A stretch of 45,976 nucleotides of DNA. Origin: a virus. Each line of letters begins with the position of its first letter. Position 1 is the stretch's first letter. The position numbers and the translations under genes are program-made. The DNA lies in the IMG/VR virus record IMGVR_UViG_3300045988_063015, positions 1 to 45,976 of that record; one strand, written 5' to 3'. This document shows, one piece after another, positions 4,739 to 44,483 of this stretch. A model generated the notes under the pieces. The model searched no databases. It saw only the letters and a program-made list of their open reading frames with translations, and had not been told where the DNA came from.

Positions 4739-5185
4739 ATGAATATGTATCCGTATATTGACCCGCAGGCATTTGCGAATGAACAGGCAATGCTGCAGCA
4801 GAGAATTAATCAGTTGGAACAGGCGAGAAACCAGCAGATGAGCATGTATGCCCCGCAGAACCAGCAACAGCCGCAGGCACCGACCAGTAACGTAAACTGG
4901 ATACAGGTTGCTGGAATTGAGGGAGCAAGAAACCAGATTGTCCAGCCTGGGCATACGGCGTGGATGATGGACAACAACAGCCCTGTATTCTACGTCAAGT
5001 CTGTGGATGGCATGGGAAGCGCGACTTTTAAGGTGTTTCAGTTCGCCGAGATCTCGCCAGAAGCCCTAAACCCGGCACAGAACCAGTCGAAAGAAGAAAG
5101 ACAAGAATACGTTACGCGGCAGGAATTTGACGCTCTGCTGACGCGATTAGGCGAAAAGCCGGAGAATAAGGAGGAATCCGTATGA
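4739..5185 (+). CDS. Gln/Asn-rich protein, unknown function
   Basis: 148 aa with a Q-rich N-terminal half (QQRINQLEQARNQQMSMYAPQNQQQPQAP) and a globular C-terminal half. The second ATG at 4745 has better spacing to the GGAGGA. Confidence 0.6.
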   Translation: MNMYPYIDPQAFANEQAMLQQRINQLEQARNQQMSMYAPQNQQQPQAPTSNVNWIQVAGIEGARNQIVQPGHTAWMMDNNSPVFYVKSVDGMGSATFKVFQFAEISPEALNPAQNQSKEERQEYVTRQEFDALLTRLGEKPENKEESV

Positions 5186-5495: not shown

Positions 5496-6185
5496 ATGAC
5501 AGATGGAACAATGGGACTTAGCGCGGCTGATGTAGCAGCCGTCACAAGAAACAACGACGATGATGGTTGGGGAAATAATTCCTGGATTTGGATTATTTTC
5601 TTAGCTTTCTTATTCCCAATGATGATGGGCGGATGGAACCGCGGCGGCGTTGAGACTGGCGTACAGGACAATTTCATTTCAGATGAATTTGTGAAACGTG
5701 ACATTTTCAATACCAATCAGAACGTTTCCAACACAGCTTGCCAGACGCAGAGAGACGTACTGGAAAACCGGTATACCAATCAGCTCGGCTTACAGCAGGT
5801 GCAGGCGGCACAGCAGAATTGTTGCTGTGAAACACAGAAAGAGATTCTGCAGAGCCGATATGATGCGGCACTCATGGCACAGAATATGCAGGCTCAGATG
5901 GCACAGTGTTGCTGCGACATCAAGGAGAGCATTCTGGCCGATGGAAACGCAACCAGACAGATGATGCAGGAAAACACCATCCAGGCACTTAGGGATAAGC
6001 TGTCAGACCGTGACCGTGATCTGCAGAATGCGTACAATCAGATTTCACAGGTTTCGCAGACCCGTACAATCATTGATGCGGTACGCCCGACACCTACACC
6101 GGCTTATCTTACATGTTCCCCGTATTTCGCGTACAACATGACCGGATACGGCGGATGTTGCGGAAATGGCGGTAACGTGCTTTGA
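5496..6185 (+). CDS. Single-pass membrane protein with Cys-triplet repeats
   Basis: 229 aa with a TM helix WIWIIFLAFLFPMMMGGW. Three repeat units follow (ACQTQRDVLENRY / CCCETQKEILQSRY / CCCDIKESILADG), and the C-terminus is GGCCGNGGNVL. Confidence 0.6.
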   Translation: MTDGTMGLSAADVAAVTRNNDDDGWGNNSWIWIIFLAFLFPMMMGGWNRGGVETGVQDNFISDEFVKRDIFNTNQNVSNTACQTQRDVLENRYTNQLGLQQVQAAQQNCCCETQKEILQSRYDAALMAQNMQAQMAQCCCDIKESILADGNATRQMMQENTIQALRDKLSDRDRDLQNAYNQISQVSQTRTIIDAVRPTPTPAYLTCSPYFAYNMTGYGGCCGNGGNVL

Positions 6186-6397
6186 TGAACACAAGCGAGC
6201 TGTCCGCACTCGATCTTCTGAACCTGTTCGGTGTATTCCTGCAGGCGATGAACTATCAGAGCGACCTGTCACAGGCGAGCAATGCAGATATCGCAAAGCA
6301 CCTGCAGGAACAGGACAGAAAGTACCTTGACCGGATCATCGAAAACCAAAATAAAATAATCAGCATGTTGGAAGATTCCAAATCTACGAAACAGTAG
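6185..6397 (+). CDS. Small hypothetical protein
   Basis: 70 aa with a TGATG overlap with the upstream gene. Confidence 0.5.
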   Translation: MNTSELSALDLLNLFGVFLQAMNYQSDLSQASNADIAKHLQEQDRKYLDRIIENQNKIISMLEDSKSTKQ

Positions 6398-9031: not shown

Positions 9032-10060
9032 ATGCCAAGAACTGGTACTTTTGGCGGCTTTTCGTTTGACCCGGAGGTGTTCTCCGACTACATGAGCGAG
9101 CAGCCGACCTGGAATGACCGAATCTTAGCGTCTGGAATCCTTGTACAGGATCAGACGATCATGGATCTGATCGGAACCAAAGGAAACGTTGCGACGCTTC
9201 CATTTTATGTTCCGATTGACGAGGATGAATCTCACGCGCTCAACAATGATGGTGAAACCGACAACACCCCGACTGAGATCAGTGGAAAGAAACAGACTTG
9301 TATGCTGACCCAGCGTATGAAAGCATGGAAAGCCCAGGATTTCACAAAGGAGCTGACCGGCGCTGACCCGATGACGCATGTTGCAAACTCTGTTGCCGGA
9401 TTCTATCGGCAGGTAAGAACACGCGATCTCATGGCTATTGTTGACGCGGTTCTTTCACTGGACGGTATGAAAGATCATGTTACGGATCTTTCGGCGACGG
9501 CATCTTCTGGGGTTACAACCGTAACCGATGCAAACAAAATCAATGATACAACACTGATTTTCGCGCAGCAGAAAGCAGTTGGAGACGCAGACGAGAACAT
9601 GGGTCTGCTGGTCATTAACTCTTACATCTACGCTCGATACAAGGCTATGGGGCTGGTTGATTACAACAAGTACACCATCACCAATGCTATCGAGCGAGAT
9701 GTTGAACTTCCAACGATCGGCGGATTCATTCCGGTTGTATCTGACCGTTTCACGGTAGACACATCTACAGACGTTCCGATCTATAAGAGCTATATGATCG
9801 GATCTGGAACGGTGCTCACCTGCGATAAGACCAACTACGAGGACCCGTACTATGCAGACTACGATCCGGAAACCAAAGCCGGTATTCGTAAGTTATACAC
9901 AAAACAGGGCTACGTGTTGCATCCGAACGGATTCTCAATTAACGCAAATAGAATCGCAAAAGAATCCCCGACCAATGCAGAACTCGGAGCAAAAGCGAAC
10001 TGGTCACTTGCGTTCAATCACAAAAATATCCGTATGGGACTGATTAAGTCCAACGGTTGA
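9032..10060 (+). CDS. Major capsid protein (HK97 fold expected)
   Basis: 342 aa between the scaffold and head-tail connector genes, with a strong leader and RBS. Confidence 0.85.
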   Translation: MPRTGTFGGFSFDPEVFSDYMSEQPTWNDRILASGILVQDQTIMDLIGTKGNVATLPFYVPIDEDESHALNNDGETDNTPTEISGKKQTCMLTQRMKAWKAQDFTKELTGADPMTHVANSVAGFYRQVRTRDLMAIVDAVLSLDGMKDHVTDLSATASSGVTTVTDANKINDTTLIFAQQKAVGDADENMGLLVINSYIYARYKAMGLVDYNKYTITNAIERDVELPTIGGFIPVVSDRFTVDTSTDVPIYKSYMIGSGTVLTCDKTNYEDPYYADYDPETKAGIRKLYTKQGYVLHPNGFSINANRIAKESPTNAELGAKANWSLAFNHKNIRMGLIKSNG

Positions 10061-21382: not shown

Positions 21383-22540
21383 ATGCCACAGTTTAATGAA
21401 TACACAGATAAAACGGAACTGTCTGATTCTGACATTTCCGTTTTATACGACGCGTCCAGCAGGACGACAAAAAGGTTTTCTTTTTTGAACATAAGCCGTT
21501 ATGTGCTTGCGAAGCTTTCCACTCGGTTGTTTACAAATCTTTCCACAGAAGATAAAACAATCCCGGGTGCTATCAACGAGGTCAACACTAAGGCGGCGAA
21601 GATTGATGATTTTGAAAACGTAATCGCCGAAAAAGCGAACAAGGAAGATATTCCGACGACGCTTTCTGAGCTAGCAAGTGACAGTGAACACAATACGGTT
21701 ACGGCTGCGGAAAAAGAAATCTGGAATAAAAAAAGTGATTTCAGTGGAAGTTACAATGATTTGACAGATAAACCGGAAATCCACGGTGTTACGGTTGACG
21801 AAACACTTGATGAAACATCAGAAAATCCCGTGCAGAATAAAGCTGTATACGCTGAATTCCAGAAAAAGGCCGGGAAAAATGACATTCCTAAATCGCTGTC
21901 AGCGTTGGCCGCTGATGAAAACCATAGAACTGTTACAGACACTGAAAAAGAAAATTGGAATGCAAAAAGCGATTTTTCCGGCGACTACAGCGAACTTTCC
22001 AACAAACCAAAAATTCCAGAAAAATTAGCGGATCTTGCGGAAGATGAAACACATCGTACCGTTACCGACAGCGAAAAAGGTGCGTGGGACGCAAAAAGTA
22101 ATTTTTCTGGTAACTATTCGGATCTGTCCGGCGTTCCAGCGATCCCGGAAAAACTTCCGAACCCAAACAAGCTGACATTTTCCGGCGCTGTTACTGCTGA
22201 GTATGACGGCTCTGGCGCGGTAACGGTGGAAATTCCAGAGGAAAACGACTACAGAGTTGCCAGAATCGAAAAAGGAACGACGGACAGCACAGTGGAACTT
22301 GAACCGAATAAGCTTTATATTTTTCCAGAAATGGGGAGCTTAACTTATACGCTTGCGGTGCCGAACGACTCGGCGGTTGCGAACGAATATCATTTTGTTT
22401 TCAAAAGCGGCGCAACAGCAACAAGAGTTGTACACCCGGCAGGGGTCAATATCGGGAGCTTTAGCGTTGAGTCAAATAAAATCTATGAGGTGTCGATCCT
22501 TGAGGGCTTGCTGACGAGCCAGAGTTGGGCGGTGAGCTGA
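21383..22540 (+). CDS. Tail fibre protein with three ~45-aa repeats
   Basis: 385 aa. The unit L(S/A)xLAxDxxH(R/N)TVTxxEKxxWxxKSxFSGxYxxLxxxPxI occurs three times. Confidence 0.75.
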   Translation: MPQFNEYTDKTELSDSDISVLYDASSRTTKRFSFLNISRYVLAKLSTRLFTNLSTEDKTIPGAINEVNTKAAKIDDFENVIAEKANKEDIPTTLSELASDSEHNTVTAAEKEIWNKKSDFSGSYNDLTDKPEIHGVTVDETLDETSENPVQNKAVYAEFQKKAGKNDIPKSLSALAADENHRTVTDTEKENWNAKSDFSGDYSELSNKPKIPEKLADLAEDETHRTVTDSEKGAWDAKSNFSGNYSDLSGVPAIPEKLPNPNKLTFSGAVTAEYDGSGAVTVEIPEENDYRVARIEKGTTDSTVELEPNKLYIFPEMGSLTYTLAVPNDSAVANEYHFVFKSGATATRVVHPAGVNIGSFSVESNKIYEVSILEGLLTSQSWAVS

Positions 22541-23001
22541 TGGAACGAAGAAGAACATTAGGAAGTGAGGCAGAAAGCTCAATGAATGAAGAATATGAAC
22601 TTGTCGGCACTGCAAGTATAACGGAAGAAACGGCTACTGTAAACATACAGTTGAGTAAACCTTGTACAGAGTTATATTTGTTTTGCGAGAAATTAAAAGC
22701 AACAAATAATACGCAATTAATTATTGGTATAGGTAATAACAATATTATGTCGGGTATAAATAATGAATTATCAGCAAATGTACAAAATACCATTCAGCAT
22801 ATAAGAAAGATAGGAAAGACGTGGATGAGGACGGGAAATAATCATGCGTCCTATCCGTTATCTACTGCCACGTCAACAATGTATACTGCAAAATTAAATG
22901 CAAAGAATCCAATACCAGAACAAATTTCTGCGATCACATTACAAGCAAATACGGGCATTGATAAAATCACATCTGGCACAATAGAAGTTTACGGGAGGTA
23001 A
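22540..23001 (+). CDS. MxRRR paralogue 1 (fibre-associated, unknown function)
   Basis: 153 aa starting MERRRTLG. Its ATG overlaps the fibre stop (TGATG), and it is more AT-rich than its neighbours. Confidence 0.6.
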   Translation: MERRRTLGSEAESSMNEEYELVGTASITEETATVNIQLSKPCTELYLFCEKLKATNNTQLIIGIGNNNIMSGINNELSANVQNTIQHIRKIGKTWMRTGNNHASYPLSTATSTMYTAKLNAKNPIPEQISAITLQANTGIDKITSGTIEVYGR

Positions 23002-23007
23002 GTTGAC

Positions 23008-23109
23008 ATGAAACACAAATTAAACCACAATCTGGTCGGTCGGTCGGTCGGTCGGTCGGTCGGTGATCTAACTGACTCGCTCCTGCCGAGCAAGGCGGTG
23101 AGGGTATGA
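23008..23109 (+). CDS. Leader ORF 1 (33 aa) carrying the (GGTC)7 tract
   Basis: GGGAGG lies 9 nt upstream of the ATG. The product is MKHKLNHNLVGRSVGRSVGDLTDSLLPSKAVRV, and its stop TGA overlaps the next start (ATGA at 23106..23109). Confidence 0.4.
   Translation: MKHKLNHNLVGRSVGRSVGDLTDSLLPSKAVRV
23034..23064. repeat. Tetranucleotide microsatellite (GGTC)7+GGT
   Basis: Counted directly: 31 nt with perfect periodicity. Confidence 0.97.
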
Positions 23110-23564
23110 GCCGCCGGAGAATGATGATGCAAGCGCAGGAGGTAGAAAATATGAATTGGAAAGAAGTAAAAACAGTAGTTGCGCAGAATGATGGCGATAC
23201 ATTATATGTAGACGGATTTGAAGCGGAAAGAATTAGAGTGACAGCGATGCTTGCGACCGTAACAGATAATAGAGGACTCCGCTTTAATATTTCGGAAAAT
23301 GCATATGAAAATTCTTTTAACATAGGAACATCTACGTCGACTGAATTTAGACCGCTTTTATGCGAAATTGGAGTTGTTGGAAATTATGCGATAAGCACAG
23401 CCTTTTGCCCTCCCCGAGTTTCTGCTGCTGTTAACGTACAAAACGCAGTAGCGGGAGGAATGGCATTACCAAACGGAGAAACACTTATAAAGCGATTCAG
23501 AATTGGCTCATCGAACGACAAATTGAAAGCGGGGTCTTGGTTGAAAATAGAAAAATGGGAATAG
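23106..23564 (+). CDS. MxRRR paralogue 2
   Basis: 152 aa starting MSRRRMMM. The GGCGGTGAG-N3-ATG junction is identical to the one in front of paralogue 1. Confidence 0.6.
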   Translation: MSRRRMMMQAQEVENMNWKEVKTVVAQNDGDTLYVDGFEAERIRVTAMLATVTDNRGLRFNISENAYENSFNIGTSTSTEFRPLLCEIGVVGNYAISTAFCPPRVSAAVNVQNAVAGGMALPNGETLIKRFRIGSSNDKLKAGSWLKIEKWE

Positions 23565-23578
23565 GAGTTGATACAGAT

Positions 23579-23644
23579 ATGAATGATGCTAAAATCCTGA
23601 CAGCACAGCACAGCACAGCACAGCACAGCACAGCGGGTAATTGA
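23579..23644 (+). CDS. Leader ORF 2 (21 aa in this sequence) carrying the (ACAGC)7 tract
   Basis: The product is MNDAKILTAQHSTAQHSTAGN, ending at TGA 23642. With 8 (or 5) repeat units it would extend to TAA 23688..23690, overlapping the ATG at 23684. Confidence 0.35.
   Translation: MNDAKILTAQHSTAQHSTAGN
23600..23634. repeat. Pentanucleotide microsatellite (ACAGC)7
   Basis: Counted directly: 35 nt with perfect periodicity. Confidence 0.97.
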
Positions 23645-23683
23645 GCTTAAAAACCGCATCAACGCCGAGAAAGCTGTGGAGAC

Positions 23684-24040
23684 ATGGTAAGGCGGCGGAC
23701 GATGCTGGCAGAGATGCCACAAGGGGCGGATGGTATGATGCTGGAATATGTTGGCGATGTTACTTTGGCCAATAACTACGGTACGGTAACGGTAAATTTC
23801 CCGGTCGAAAATGATACTCTGTATATCTTGAGACCGAAAAATTACCCGTACATCAAAGTTATAGCAATATTAGTGCACGGCGATAAATATGGTTTTATAT
23901 TTTGCGCTGAGAATACAACAGGCGGAGCATGGACAGAACGAAACTATGACGTATCTGACGGAAAAGTAGATTTTAAGGCGCGTATCGCCGAAAACAAAAA
24001 TGAAACTATTGATTTTGCAATCTATAAAATGGATCTGTAA
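23684..24040 (+). CDS. MxRRR paralogue 3
   Basis: 118 aa starting MVRRRTML. No well-spaced SD is present (GGAG sits only 2 nt from the ATG). Confidence 0.55.
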   Translation: MVRRRTMLAEMPQGADGMMLEYVGDVTLANNYGTVTVNFPVENDTLYILRPKNYPYIKVIAILVHGDKYGFIFCAENTTGGAWTERNYDVSDGKVDFKARIAENKNETIDFAIYKMDL

Positions 24041-24067: not shown

Positions 24068-24427
24068 GTGCACGCAAAATTGTTAAACGGCTGCCTGCGC
24101 AGCTCCCCGTCTACTGTTATTTTAGACGGCAGATCGATCAATAACCCGCTACCGGAAGAACTGGAACAGCTGGGCTATAAACCTGTGGTATACACGGATG
24201 CACCAGCCGATCAGACCGAGGGCAAGCACTGGGAGTCAGAGTGGGCAGAGGGAGAGACGGAGATCAGACAAGTCTGGAGGCTTGTCGATGATCCGATCTA
24301 TCCGGATCCGGAGCCGACACCAGAGGAAAGAATCAGCAATTTAGAAACCGAAACAGATGAGTTAAAGGCCACATCAGATGATATCATCTTGATGATGGCG
24401 GATTTAATCGGAGGAGAAAAGAAATGA
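24068..24427 (+). CDS. Conserved phage protein of the fibre/lysis junction
   Basis: 119 aa with a GTG start after AAGGGGGTGA. The LEQLGYKPVVYTDAP pattern is common in Firmicutes phages upstream of XkdX/holin genes. Confidence 0.55.
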   Translation: MHAKLLNGCLRSSPSTVILDGRSINNPLPEELEQLGYKPVVYTDAPADQTEGKHWESEWAEGETEIRQVWRLVDDPIYPDPEPTPEERISNLETETDELKATSDDIILMMADLIGGEKK

Positions 24428-37004: not shown

Positions 37005-37078
37005 AAATGCCCTCCGGTGAGACGAAGGGCATCCGTAAAAAGACAACATCATCATAGCACATGAAAGGAGAAAAGGCA

Positions 37079-37777
37079 ATGGGAATGAAAGGATTTAAAG
37101 GGTTCGAGAAAGATTTTTCCTGCAGAGGGAAACAGTACGAGGAAAACACGACTTACGAGGAGAACGGAACCGGATGCTGCCATAAAGGAGTTATGCATTT
37201 CTGCGAGGATCCGTGGGAGGTGCTGAATCATTATGATCTCGTAGATGGAAATGGAGATTTTTCCGAATTTGCGGAAGTGGACGCCCGGGGACAGGTTTGG
37301 AGTGATGGGGATAAGCGTGCGACAGATAAGCTCCATATCGGAGCAAAGCTCGGATTTAAAGGCTTTATCAAAGCGTGTGTTGATTTTACGGTCGAGCGTA
37401 CAAAATTTGACGACTTAATCGGCTCGTCCGGGAACTCTGCGAAGATCGGAAGCTCCGGGAACTCTGCGAAGATCGGAAGCTCCGGGGACTATGCGAAGAT
37501 CGGAAGCTCCGGGGACTATGCGAAGATCGGAAGCTCCGGGAACTCTGCGCAGATCAATAGCACCGGTGAAGATGCGGTGATTATGTGTGCGGGTAATGAA
37601 TCACGAGCAAAAGCCAAAAAGGGAAGCTGGATCACGCTTGCGGAATGGGTGGAAGATGAAGAAAAAGGACGCTATGTGCCGGTATGCGTAAAAACTGAGT
37701 ACGTAGACGGCGAAAAAATCAAAGAAGACACCTATTACACGCTGAAAAGCGGAGAATTTGTGGAGGTAGAAGAATGA
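37079..37777 (+). CDS. DUF7666-like protein with five 9-aa IGSSG(N/D)(S/Y)AK repeats
   Basis: KGFKGFEKDFSCRGKQYEENTTYEE...MHFCEDPWEVLNHY has the family pattern as I recall it. The start is ATG at 37079 or 37085. Confidence 0.65.
   Translation: MGMKGFKGFEKDFSCRGKQYEENTTYEENGTGCCHKGVMHFCEDPWEVLNHYDLVDGNGDFSEFAEVDARGQVWSDGDKRATDKLHIGAKLGFKGFIKACVDFTVERTKFDDLIGSSGNSAKIGSSGNSAKIGSSGDYAKIGSSGDYAKIGSSGNSAQINSTGEDAVIMCAGNESRAKAKKGSWITLAEWVEDEEKGRYVPVCVKTEYVDGEKIKEDTYYTLKSGEFVEVEE
37418..37552 (+). repeat. 27-bp tandem repeat, five copies, in frame
   Basis: ATCGG(C/A)(T/A)(C/G)(G/C)TCCGGG(A/G)ACT(C/A)TGCG(A/C)AG units, 135 nt in total. Confidence 0.95.
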
Positions 37778-43417: not shown

Positions 43418-43470
43418 CCCCCATGCCAGTACACTAAGAATAGAAGTGTATTAGTATGGGGGTGATTTTT
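43418..43470 (+). terminator. Two-segment hairpin + T5 directly in front of the DUF4417 gene
   Basis: CCCCCAT pairs with ATGGGGG and AGTACAC with GTGTATT, followed by TGATTTTT. The 3' arm contains the GGGGGTGA SD of the ATG at 43471. Confidence 0.5.
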
Positions 43471-44091
43471 ATGCCTACAAACAAGACTTACGACAATCTC
43501 GAGAAAATGATATTCTCCGGCGTGGGAGAATACGGAATCCCCGAAATTATGCCAGAACAGTACAGGAAGTGCGAGTGGATCGGATTCAATTACGCTGCGA
43601 GCACTGCGAGGCGAGCCGGGAAGGGCGTGCATTTCTTCCTGGATGACTACCAGTTCGAACGGGTATGGAACAACCCGGACAGGTATATTGAGGTACTGAG
43701 AGACTATGACTACGTGCTTTCACCGGATTTCAGCATGTACACGGACTTTCCGAAAGCCATGCAGATTTACAACCATTACAGAAAACACTGGTGCGCGGCA
43801 TATATGCAAATGAATGGACTGCGTGTAATACCTACGATCGCATGGAGCGATGAAAGCTCGTTTGAGTGGTGCTTTGATGGCGAGCCGGTGGGAAGCGTGG
43901 TGGCAGTATCCAGTGTGGGAACGCAGAACAGCAAGGCGAAAAAGGCGGCATTCCTGCGGGGATATGAAGAAATGATGAAACGATTATCACCGGAGCATGT
44001 GATCTTCTTCGGGAAAGTTCCGGAAGAACTGGAAGGGTACGTGGAAAAGGTCGCGGCATTCCAGGAGAGATACAAGAAGGAGGGAACCTAA
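43471..44091 (+). CDS. DUF4417-family protein
   Basis: GVHFFLDDYQFERVWNNPDRYIEVL...LSPDFSMYTDFPKAMQIYNHYRKHW has the DUF4417 pattern. An alternative start lies at 43456. Confidence 0.7.
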   Translation: MPTNKTYDNLEKMIFSGVGEYGIPEIMPEQYRKCEWIGFNYAASTARRAGKGVHFFLDDYQFERVWNNPDRYIEVLRDYDYVLSPDFSMYTDFPKAMQIYNHYRKHWCAAYMQMNGLRVIPTIAWSDESSFEWCFDGEPVGSVVAVSSVGTQNSKAKKAAFLRGYEEMMKRLSPEHVIFFGKVPEELEGYVEKVAAFQERYKKEGT

Positions 44092-44483
44092 ATGGGGGGG
44101 GGCGCGGAAGTAGCAGCAACTTACAAAACAGAAGCACCAAGCAATCATTAGAGGAGTTTCTGGGGAAAAGAGGCCTTTCCTCTCCTATGAGTGATTACAT
44201 GGTAGATAAGATGCGTATTCCTCATGGAATGACGCAGAGACAGCAGAAAAAATTCGAAAAAGATGCTGCAAAAGCAAGAGAAGAGTACTCCGCAAAGCGA
44301 GAATCAGCAATCAAGGAATACAATCAAAAAGTTGCATCTGGACAAATTACACAACCAGGTAAGTATGATAAGTTACTGAAAACCGCGAAAGGTCATTCGG
44401 ATAACGAATCCGTGCAGGCGGCCAGAAGAACGCTTACAAAACGCGGCATAGACTGGAAAACAGGAAAAAAATTGAAGAGGTAA
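44092..44483 (+). pseudogene. Gene interrupted by a G9 tract just after its start codon (intact 130-aa product with G10)
   Basis: AGGAGGG RBS lies 8 nt before the ATG at 44092. G9 (44094..44102) gives a 19-aa peptide. G10 reads MGGGRGSSSNLQNRSTKQSLEEFLGKRGLSSP into ORF-track 44187..44483, whose own ATG has no SD. Confidence 0.5.

Follow-up and report, generated by a model that had tools for sequence, protein, structure and literature searches.

How might a gene be controlled by a simple repeat that lies in front of it, inside a short reading frame of its own? This question is raised by a locus in the virus record IMGVR_UViG_3300045988_063015 of the IMG/VR database. The record was analysed over its full length of 45,976 nucleotides (nt), and this whole 46-kb stretch, which is a temperate siphophage of gut Lachnospiraceae, is called the window below. 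Behind a gene for a fibre-like protein, the window encodes three small proteins (p1, p2, and p3) in units that we call cassettes, and the last two cassettes are each preceded by a leader open reading frame (ORF) containing a perfect microsatellite. It is probable that these tracts act by slipped-strand phase variation, in which translational coupling to the leader ORF gates the accessory tail-fibre tip genes and to which terminator read-through is added in some relatives.

The first leader and its cassette p2 consist of the following features.

22993..22998, plus strand: Shine-Dalgarno (SD) sequence GGGAGG of leader ORF 1, spaced 9 nt from the leader ATG (23008) and in overlap with the p1 stop codon TAA (22999..23001)
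23008..23109, plus strand: leader ORF 1 in the ON frame, 33 codons, MKHKLNHNL(VGRS)n...KAVRV*
23034..23064, plus strand: (GGTC)7GGT microsatellite (tract 1), 100% matches and a score of 62 in Tandem Repeats Finder
23064..23075, plus strand: stop codons in the two remaining frames, TGA 23064 and TGA 23073 in one and TAA 23069 in the other
23106..23564, plus strand: cassette p2, 152 amino acids (aa), MSRRRMMM..., with its ATG at 23106 overlapping the stop codon of leader 1 (ATGA)

After tract 1, two of the frames are closed 0-12 nt downstream and the third is open to TGA 23107..23109. This third frame, which ends at the p2 start codon, is the one present in the window; with seven units, p2 is therefore in the ON state at present. 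Gain or loss of a single GGTC unit would end leader 1 approximately 37-42 nt upstream of the p2 ATG. The initial annotation of this DNA had described the leader with its SD sequence and spacing, the perfect tract, the stop codons in the other two frames, and the overlap of the leader stop with the p2 ATG, as well as the early, uncoupled end of the leader after a change of one unit. The coordinates and the repeat were confirmed, and the frame analysis agrees with the expected loss of coupling. Read in the GTCG register, the GGTC tract is a point variant of the (GTCA)n tracts that are found in relatives of this phage.

A second, equivalent switch that had not been included in the initial annotation lies ahead of p3 and has the same layout.

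23563..23595, plus strand: SD sequence AGGAG of leader ORF 2, overlapping the p2 stop codon TAG, with the promoter-like TTGATA-N16-TAAAAT behind it
23579..23644, plus strand: leader ORF 2, at present in the OFF frame, MNDAKIL(TAQHS)n..GN*, with ATG 23579 and stop codon TGA 23642
23600..23634, plus strand: (ACAGC)7 microsatellite (tract 2), 100% matches
23637..23690, plus strand: third frame after tract 2, open to TAA 23688..23690, which overlaps the p3 ATG at 23684 (ATGGTAA)
23684..24040, plus strand: cassette p3, 118 aa, MVRRRTML..., currently uncoupled

The other two frames after tract 2 are stopped by TAA 23638 and TGA 23642. With seven ACAGC units leader 2 stops at 23644, and p3 is therefore OFF; 5, 8, or 11 units would place leader 2 in the coupled frame and turn p3 ON.

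A regular-expression scan of the window found only these two perfect simple sequence repeats (SSRs) with units of 4-5 nt, (GGTC)7 and (ACAGC)7, and chance cannot account for a perfect tetranucleotide tract of 31 nt in a sequence of 46 kb. The arrangement of the frames was examined by shuffling each spacer while the real start region was kept, and by counting how often two frames were closed within 16 nt and the third ended on the start codon. This layout recurred in 1.7% of the shuffles for tract 1 and in 3.5% of those for tract 2. Each tract is thus perfect beyond chance and has a non-triplet unit placed where a change in unit number changes the frame, as in known SSR contingency loci.

The layout is conserved among relatives. 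Related loci (labelled Lnnn) were collected from IMG/VR searches with p2 and with the C-terminus of the fibre-like protein, which gave approximately 50 loci, or approximately 60 overall when prophages are included. The search with the fibre C-terminus retrieved 45 viral and 7 genomic loci, and a search of species genomes found prophages in Dorea, Bariatricus, Sellimonas, and other Lachnospiraceae. Most of the related loci have perfect tracts at the same two, sometimes three, positions. In the related IMG/VR phages and Lachnospiraceae prophages there are 54 tracts of at least 4 units at equivalent positions, with 4-27 copies and a maximum length of 135 nt, and further tracts were obtained from a scan for (GTCA)6. 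The units and their copy numbers are as follows.

GTCA: 5-21 copies
GACA/ACAG: 4-25 copies
ACAGC: 4-15 copies
AGAGC: 9 and 27 copies
AGAACGC: 4 copies
GGTC: 7 copies

The units in the 54 tracts are 4, 5, or 7 nt long and never 3, 6, or another multiple of three. In all 49 complete tracts, both of the non-productive frames stop within 17 nt. The third frame is used in two ways. Type A comprises 37 complete tracts. Here the repeat lies in a leader that is separate from the cassette, and the third frame spans 42-73 nt, at the end of which its stop codon overlaps the cassette ATG (ATGA, ATGnTAA, or equivalent) or abuts it. Type B comprises 12 tracts, in which the repeat (ACAGC, except for GTCA in L006) continues in frame into the cassette to give M..ML(TAQHS)nLRRRLL. 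The type B cassette has no ATG of its own, and the leader ATG must therefore be functional. The same frame layout was read by eye in L060, L061, and L064, whose spacers are unrelated to those of the window. Long tracts are absent from the first cassette behind the fibre gene, which carries (ACAGC)3 at most, in frame and with an invariant copy number. The gated cassettes are the second and later ones.

The cassettes that follow the tracts share the N-terminal motif MxRRR and fall into at least 10 sequence clusters, and one type of cassette can occupy different positions in different phages. Hybrid modules were observed in L006 (4883..4967), L067, and L108, where a GTCA tract (GTCA19) and a leader of the tetranucleotide type are joined via cagcacagc to a cassette that is usually found behind ACAGC. 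These hybrids suggest that recombination within or next to the repeats shuffles the cassettes. The longest tract, a 135-nt (AGAGC)27 at 4901..5035 of L064, is located in the complete genome of Sellimonas caecigallum JCM 35759 (NZ_CP173660.1, prophage at approximately 1.059-1.068 Mb), where it precedes an MSLLRRR cassette and is currently in the OFF state. The isolate genome of Bariatricus sp. HCP28S3_D3 (L062) has a fibre homologue and one cassette with no tract.

Among these relatives copy number is hypervariable. L028 and L029 differ by 2 substitutions over 8373 nt and yet differ at both tracts, with 11 and 16 units of GTCA and 12 and 8 units of ACAG, respectively. Two further pairs have no more than 4 mismatches in 400 nt of flank; L038 and L144 have 10 and 11 units, and L106 and L151 have 12 and 6 units at one tract and 5 and 4 at the other. 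Approximately 15 contigs break at or inside a tract, which the limits of short reads could equally cause. The tracts occur in both states: 17 type A tracts are ON and 20 are OFF, and 4 type B tracts are ON and 8 are OFF. The ON state is enriched among the unique tetranucleotide tracts of type A (21 of 35 compared with an expected one third; binomial P=0.001), in a set whose members are not entirely independent of one another. One cassette family has ON alleles of 8, 11, 14, and 17 units, which are steps of three.

The start sites of the gated cassettes are structured. Fold energies were compared between the cassette starts and 43 further gene starts of the window. In 31 of the 32 unique type A cassette starts, the ATG is enclosed by a hairpin, which is formed in the minimum-energy fold by the sequences on either side of it. 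The mean folding free energy is -12.5 kcal/mol for the cassette starts and -6.0 kcal/mol for the other gene starts, and at least 6 enclosing pairs are found in 97% of the former and 37% of the latter. The stems of different families differ in their offset from the ATG and in sequence (GGCGGU/ACCGCC, GCCGU/ACGGC, GGGGGCGA/UCGCUCC, UGAGGUG/CAUCUCA, and GGAGGUGG/UCACUUCU). The hairpin at the start of p2 is located as follows.

23094..23115, plus strand: p2 start hairpin GGCGGU/GCCGCC around the SD sequence (GGUGA) and AUG, 6 enclosing pairs, -12.2 kcal/mol

Around the p3 start the structure is modest (z=-2.5), with the AUG region paired. In L060 (4864..4945) and L061 (5478..5560 and 6143..6225), which are prophages from metagenome-assembled genomes of Dorea and Lachnospiraceae, the tract is followed by a strong hairpin and a run of U residues (z of -3 to -6). 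This terminator-like hairpin is followed by a second hairpin that masks the SD sequence and AUG of the cassette, and the ON frame traverses both of them. A long-range pairing of the upstream TTGAC with a downstream GTCAA around the tract was also considered, and it was dropped as folds of the whole module were no better than those of shuffled sequences.

Termination-reinitiation with a sequestered downstream start and attenuation by leader peptides, as in the trp and erm leaders, are established ways in which a leader ORF controls the gene behind it. Like translationally coupled genes, the leaders here have an upstream stop codon that overlaps the downstream ATG (ATGA at 23106..23109 for p2 and, in the third frame, ATGGTAA at 23684..23690 for p3; overlap or adjacency, such as ATGA or ATGnTAA, in the 36 coupled tracts of related loci). 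Across the family as a whole, the downstream SD sequence and AUG also lie in a hairpin, although at p2 the fold is no better than those of shuffled sequences. L060 and L061 further resemble the trp and erm systems in having a terminator-like hairpin inside the ON frame of the leader, a likeness to attenuation that does not extend to the window. The leaders described here differ from these systems in the input, which would be a heritable frame set by a microsatellite and not the supply of an amino acid or the presence of an antibiotic.

The following model for the switch is proposed. Slippage during replication would alter the number of units and with it the reading frame of the leader. Ribosomes in two of the frames would terminate no more than approximately 12 nt past the tract, with 35-45 nt left to the cassette. 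A ribosome in the third frame would reach the stop codon that overlaps the cassette ATG, melt the hairpin around the SD sequence and AUG, and reinitiate. Where the ON frame crosses an intrinsic-terminator-like hairpin, as in some distant relatives, transcriptional read-through is probably gated as well. The initial annotation had proposed a slipped-strand switch that acts through translational coupling, with p2 in the ON state; the comparative evidence supports this proposal with moderate confidence, and from this evidence we infer the mechanism, including slippage in the phage of the window and the dependence of p2 and p3 on their leaders.

Several observations weigh against this model. In the lineage of the window itself, both tracts have 7 units in every resolved assembly (L051, L052, L160, and L161), a relative with a p2 that is 91% identical likewise has (GGTC)7, and tracts of seven units are among the shorter ones observed. 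Differences in repeat number between near-identical genomes were therefore observed in related lineages and not in that of the window. The fold at the p2 start is no more stable than that of shuffled sequences (z=0.17 over the 51 nt of the start region and z=0.71 over the 74 nt that follow the tract) and p2 has a usable SD sequence of its own, GGUGA, with a good aligned spacing. With this SD sequence and a weak hairpin, the OFF state of p2 may be leaky and amount to a mere reduction in expression. No terminator-like element was found after either tract in the window. The function assigned to the cassettes is based on their position and on a mediocre structural model of p2 (predicted local distance difference test score, pLDDT, of 62), which has no significant match in the PDB. 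Lastly, the model leaves a conserved promoter-like motif beside the tracts unexplained.

Further searches were made for other members of the window lineage. A pattern for the left flank had no matches in metagenome contigs; a pattern for the right flank had a single match, L159, which is unrelated and arose by chance. The pattern AATCT(GGTC)4 had no matches in viral contigs. Look-ups of the exact p1, p2, and p3 proteins returned only contigs that are identical to the window, with 7 units in both tracts, or that are broken at a tract. The phage is present in the samples SAMN03283278/ERZ28622486, SAMN03283291, SAMN03283271, ERZ1749116, SRR1761705, and SRR31618395.

The promoter-like motif is the source of the best of the other explanations. 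A sigma-70-like motif, TTGA(C/T)A-N16-18-(T/C)AN(A/C)AT, lies directly upstream of nearly every tract and ends 2-5 nt before the repeat. In the window it is present at both tracts.

23003..23031, plus strand: TTGACA-N17-CACAAT, ending 2 nt before tract 1, the top-ranked promoter-like site in the region
23568..23595, plus strand: TTGATA-N16-TAAAAT, ending 4 nt before tract 2

The motif is found in 43 of the 52 unique tract contexts, compared with 0.05% in the background, and the sites adjacent to tracts are the best or joint-best promoter-like sites in the region of the window, and in L061 they take the top three ranks. TTGACA keeps a constant 25-27 nt from the tract, an interval within which the position of the leader ATG floats. 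The tracts might accordingly act on transcription: a sigma-A-type promoter (TTGACA-N16/17-TAnAAT) would start inside the repeat, and the length of the repeat would set the length or structure of the 5' untranslated region, or the promoter would make a short RNA of repeat plus hairpin or open the DNA for slippage, with the leader frame being secondary. The frequency and rank of the motif and its fixed distance to the tract all favour such a role, and the terminator-like hairpin that follows the tract in L060 and L061 would bound a small transcription unit. A transcript from the motif, having its start inside the repeat, would not include the leader ATG and cannot account for the features of the frame. 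It does not explain why the units are non-triplet, why two frames close together while the third ends on the cassette ATG, or why the ON state is enriched and the ON alleles are three units apart. The type B cassettes, which have no ATG after the tract, could not be translated from such a transcript at all. Classical phase variation of promoter spacing is also inapplicable because the tracts are 2-5 nt downstream of the -10-like hexamer and outside the spacer, and the spacing between the -35 and -10 elements is constant at 16-18 nt. An explanation by transcription instead of reading frame is for these reasons unlikely, and it is more likely that the promoter complements the frame mechanism than that it replaces it. 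As an added layer, the motif may affect the instability of the repeat or the relative timing of ribosome and polymerase, or it may produce a small RNA.

Phase variation through the leader frame can be extended to include the motif, although we put this extension forward tentatively and regard it as rather doubtful. The promoter-like element, leader ORF, microsatellite, terminator (where present), start-masking hairpin, and MxRRR cassette would together form a self-contained and exchangeable device for stochastic expression. One to three such devices stacked behind a constitutive cassette would randomise the receptor-binding tips of the virion, giving up to 2^n combinations, and the device would include the promoter, whose firing into the repeat could keep the DNA there unwound and thus hypermutable or time the loading of ribosomes. 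If this is true, a microsatellite would here for the first time be read via coupling to a leader ORF or attenuation, and also for the first time have an element dedicated to making it unstable.

It could also be argued that the tracts are hypermutable neutral microsatellites, or recombination joints for the exchange of cassettes, and that translation of p2 and p3 starts at a ribosome-binding site belonging to each of them, irrespective of how long the tract is. The well-spaced SD sequence of p2, the non-significant start hairpin in the window, the occurrence of cassette types at varying positions, the hybrid tracts of L006, L067, and L108, and the lack of length variation in the window lineage are all consistent with this explanation. 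Neutral or purely recombinational tracts would nevertheless predict neither an excess of ON alleles nor unusually structured starts, and the leader SD sequence and ATG, the stop-free non-triplet units, the immediate stop codons, and the stop-start overlap are kept across highly diverged sequences, which makes neutrality quite improbable. That the DNA stays unchanged, with transcriptional slippage or ribosomal frameshifting on the repeat setting a stoichiometry and not a heritable ON/OFF state, is highly improbable: repetitive RNA can in principle promote slippage and the window lineage keeps its 7 and 7 units, but to our knowledge these 4-5-nt units are not slippery sites, and the copy-number differences between near-identical phages indicate that the DNA itself changes.

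How phase variation through the leader frame relates to known systems can now be considered. The tetranucleotide tracts of lic1, lgtC, and mod in Haemophilus influenzae and the CTCTT pentamers of opa in Neisseria are SSR contingency loci of bacteria. The loci described here are like them in that perfect repeats of 4-5 nt set the frame, copy number varies between close relatives, and ON and OFF states are mixed. The type B relatives, with ACAGC in the 5' coding region, have exactly the design of opa and lic1. The carrier and target are different, namely a phage or prophage and the accessory tail-fibre proteins of its virion, and the repeat of the window is in a separate mini-ORF with a stop-start overlap. 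For bacterial SSR contingency loci, see also PMC2651432 and PMC11868660.

Repeat slippage has been reported in other phages. Hypermutable polyG tracts in receptor-binding genes of Campylobacter phages were described by Sorensen et al. (2021, Cell Rep 35:109214; cited in PMC12823448), and a 2025 preprint (PMC12633550) deals with homopolymer contingency loci of the T-even phages T2 and T4. In these phages, as would be the case here, slippage in a phage-encoded repeat leads to phenotypic heterogeneity, which in the Campylobacter phages concerns host recognition. The Campylobacter and T-even phages are lytic, have Gram-negative hosts, and carry mononucleotide runs within the ORFs that are affected, whereas the tracts described here are tetra-, penta-, and heptanucleotide repeats in leader ORFs, form arrays of independently switchable cassettes, and are carried by temperate phages of gut Firmicutes. 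The window has no tract of the Campylobacter type, as its sole G run (G9, 44094..44102) is intergenic and located elsewhere.

The recent gut-phage study PMC12823448 names three diversifiers of phage host range only: invertible segments, retroelements, and the polyG tracts of Campylobacter phages. The invertible G segment of Mu and C segment of P1 and the retroelement of the Bordetella phage BPP-1 appear to serve the same purpose as the present loci, which is the stochastic alternation of a specificity module of the distal tail fibre inside a single phage genome. Inversion in Mu and P1 and mutagenic retrohoming in BPP-1 differ from the slipped-strand frame shift proposed here, by which cassettes would be switched independently and in combinations, instead of one replacing another. 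Neither microsatellites with multi-nucleotide units in the tail modules of phages nor leader-ORF coupling gated by a repeat, in any contingency locus, turned up in our literature searches. This agrees with the remark in the initial annotation that tetranucleotide contingency tracts were not known to be described in a Firmicutes-type phage. As judged at the level of sequence, the element would work in the manner of contingency loci in bacteria; what appears to be new is its carrier, its target, and its unusual readout.

The likely role of the switched genes was examined next to that of p1. The three cassette proteins share the N-terminal motif M-x-RRR-(T/M)-(L/M) and are of comparable size. In BLASTP comparisons, p2 and p3 align with E values of at least 0.12, p1 and p3 with an E value of 41, and p1 and p2 not at all; in hhalign, the p2 profile aligned with only 7 N-terminal residues of p1 and matched p3 with a probability of 6.7%. 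Single-linkage clustering places p1 and p2 in one cluster, via intermediates. The term paralogue, which the initial annotation had used for p2, is too strong, as the common ground consists of the N-terminal M-x-RRR motif, size, and position. The p2 family is narrow, with 43 clusters that are all at least 69% identical. No sequence match to Pfam, PHROGs, or the PDB was found for the cassettes or the fibre-like protein.

An AlphaFold (AF2) model of p2 has a pLDDT of 62 and a predicted template modelling score (pTM) of 0.62, and consists of an N-terminal helix (residues 3-14) and a beta-sandwich. A fold search with this model had no match at E<=0.001 in the PDB and five weak matches at E<=0.001 (1.2e-4 to 4.4e-4) in BFVD, which are uncharacterised phage proteins. 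The weak fold matches include C-terminal parts of uncharacterised siphophage proteins, tail or fibre proteins, carbohydrate-binding modules, and a tail-needle knob. In the lactococcal siphophage TP901-1, the baseplate carries a small receptor-binding protein, BppL, which serves here as a lead only. BppL and the cassette proteins have in common a length of approximately 120-165 aa, a beta-sandwich head preceded by an N-terminal helix (as in the p2 model), and a gene position directly behind the distal tail genes; the cassettes are unlike it in having no detectable sequence similarity and weak fold matches. The fold matches, the conserved C-terminus of the fibre-like protein, the variable cassettes, and the shared N-terminal motif make it probable that p1, p2, and p3 dock on the fibre C-terminus and serve as distal tip or receptor-binding proteins, and they may in this way influence host range.

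It appears that a large group of temperate phages of Lachnospiraceae that are abundant in the human gut switches accessory tail-fibre proteins independently by means of microsatellites. If confirmed, this would be a new class of bet-hedging in phages and would help to explain how gut prophages cope with receptor diversity at the strain level. It would also mean that consensus assemblies hide functional heterogeneity, since contigs often break at the tracts, and it would offer synthetic biology a compact natural module for stochastic switching. Sellimonas caecigallum JCM 35759, the culture-collection strain that contains L064, is a ready experimental system.

The surroundings of the switches are those of a tail module. 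The gene content of the window includes an integrase, a helix-turn-helix repressor, an antirepressor, a portal protein, a minor capsid protein, a tape measure protein, and an amidase, as well as a 1030-aa tail protein that matches phrog_6616. A holin matching Phage_holin_5_2 was found in a contig that is identical to the window. Between the tail protein and the lysis genes the order is a 166-aa gene, the fibre-like gene, p1, leader 1, p2, leader 2, p3, and a 119-aa gene. The neighbours of the switches are as follows.

21383..22540, plus strand: fibre-like protein, 385 aa, 3' of the tape-measure gene and the phrog_6616 tail protein
22540..23001, plus strand: cassette p1, 153 aa, MERRRTL..., with a TGATG overlap with the fibre gene and no microsatellite
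24068..24427, plus strand: conserved 119-aa gene, found after the cassette array in related phages and before the holin and amidase genes

The C-terminal part of the fibre-like protein (approximately 125 aa) is conserved and stands before the cassette array in all related loci. As p1 is coupled directly to the fibre gene with no microsatellite in between, it is presumably always expressed.

Among GenBank phages, no close relative of the locus was found; there were short matches around the holin genes and a distant homologue of the fibre C-terminus. This homologue belongs to the Enterocloster phage CB473P1 (OP172755.1; L158, 3677..5838) and is a 194-aa protein whose C-terminus is 41% identical to residues 303-385 of the fibre-like protein. 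In the cultured Enterocloster bolteae phages, the fibre homologue is followed by an overlapping 525-aa gene that has neither the RRR motif nor a microsatellite.

GTCA tracts were also observed outside tail modules. In an unrelated family of IMG/VR phages, (GTCA)6-18 is located in the 5' part of an ORF of approximately 270 aa with motifs like those of C5 DNA methyltransferases (..FDSGNGC.. -tract- ..SPPCESWS..ENPASS). The family includes L068, L069, L070, L080, L082 (tract at 10015), L089, L092, and L099, as well as L119, L122, L125, L129, L130, L141, and L154. The ORF is in frame with 8 and 14 units (and with 6 in a variant flank) and out of frame with 7, 9, 12, 13, 15, and 18 units. Its sequence looks like that of a phage-borne phase-variable methyltransferase.

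Two other repeats were noted in the window. The G9 homopolymer mentioned above is the longest G/C run of the window and lies between a DUF4417 gene (43456..44091) and an ORF at 44187..44483. A 27-nt tandem repeat with 4.8 copies (95% matches) at 37427..37576 is located inside a DUF7666 gene (37061..37777), where it is in frame and encodes repeats of 9 aa.

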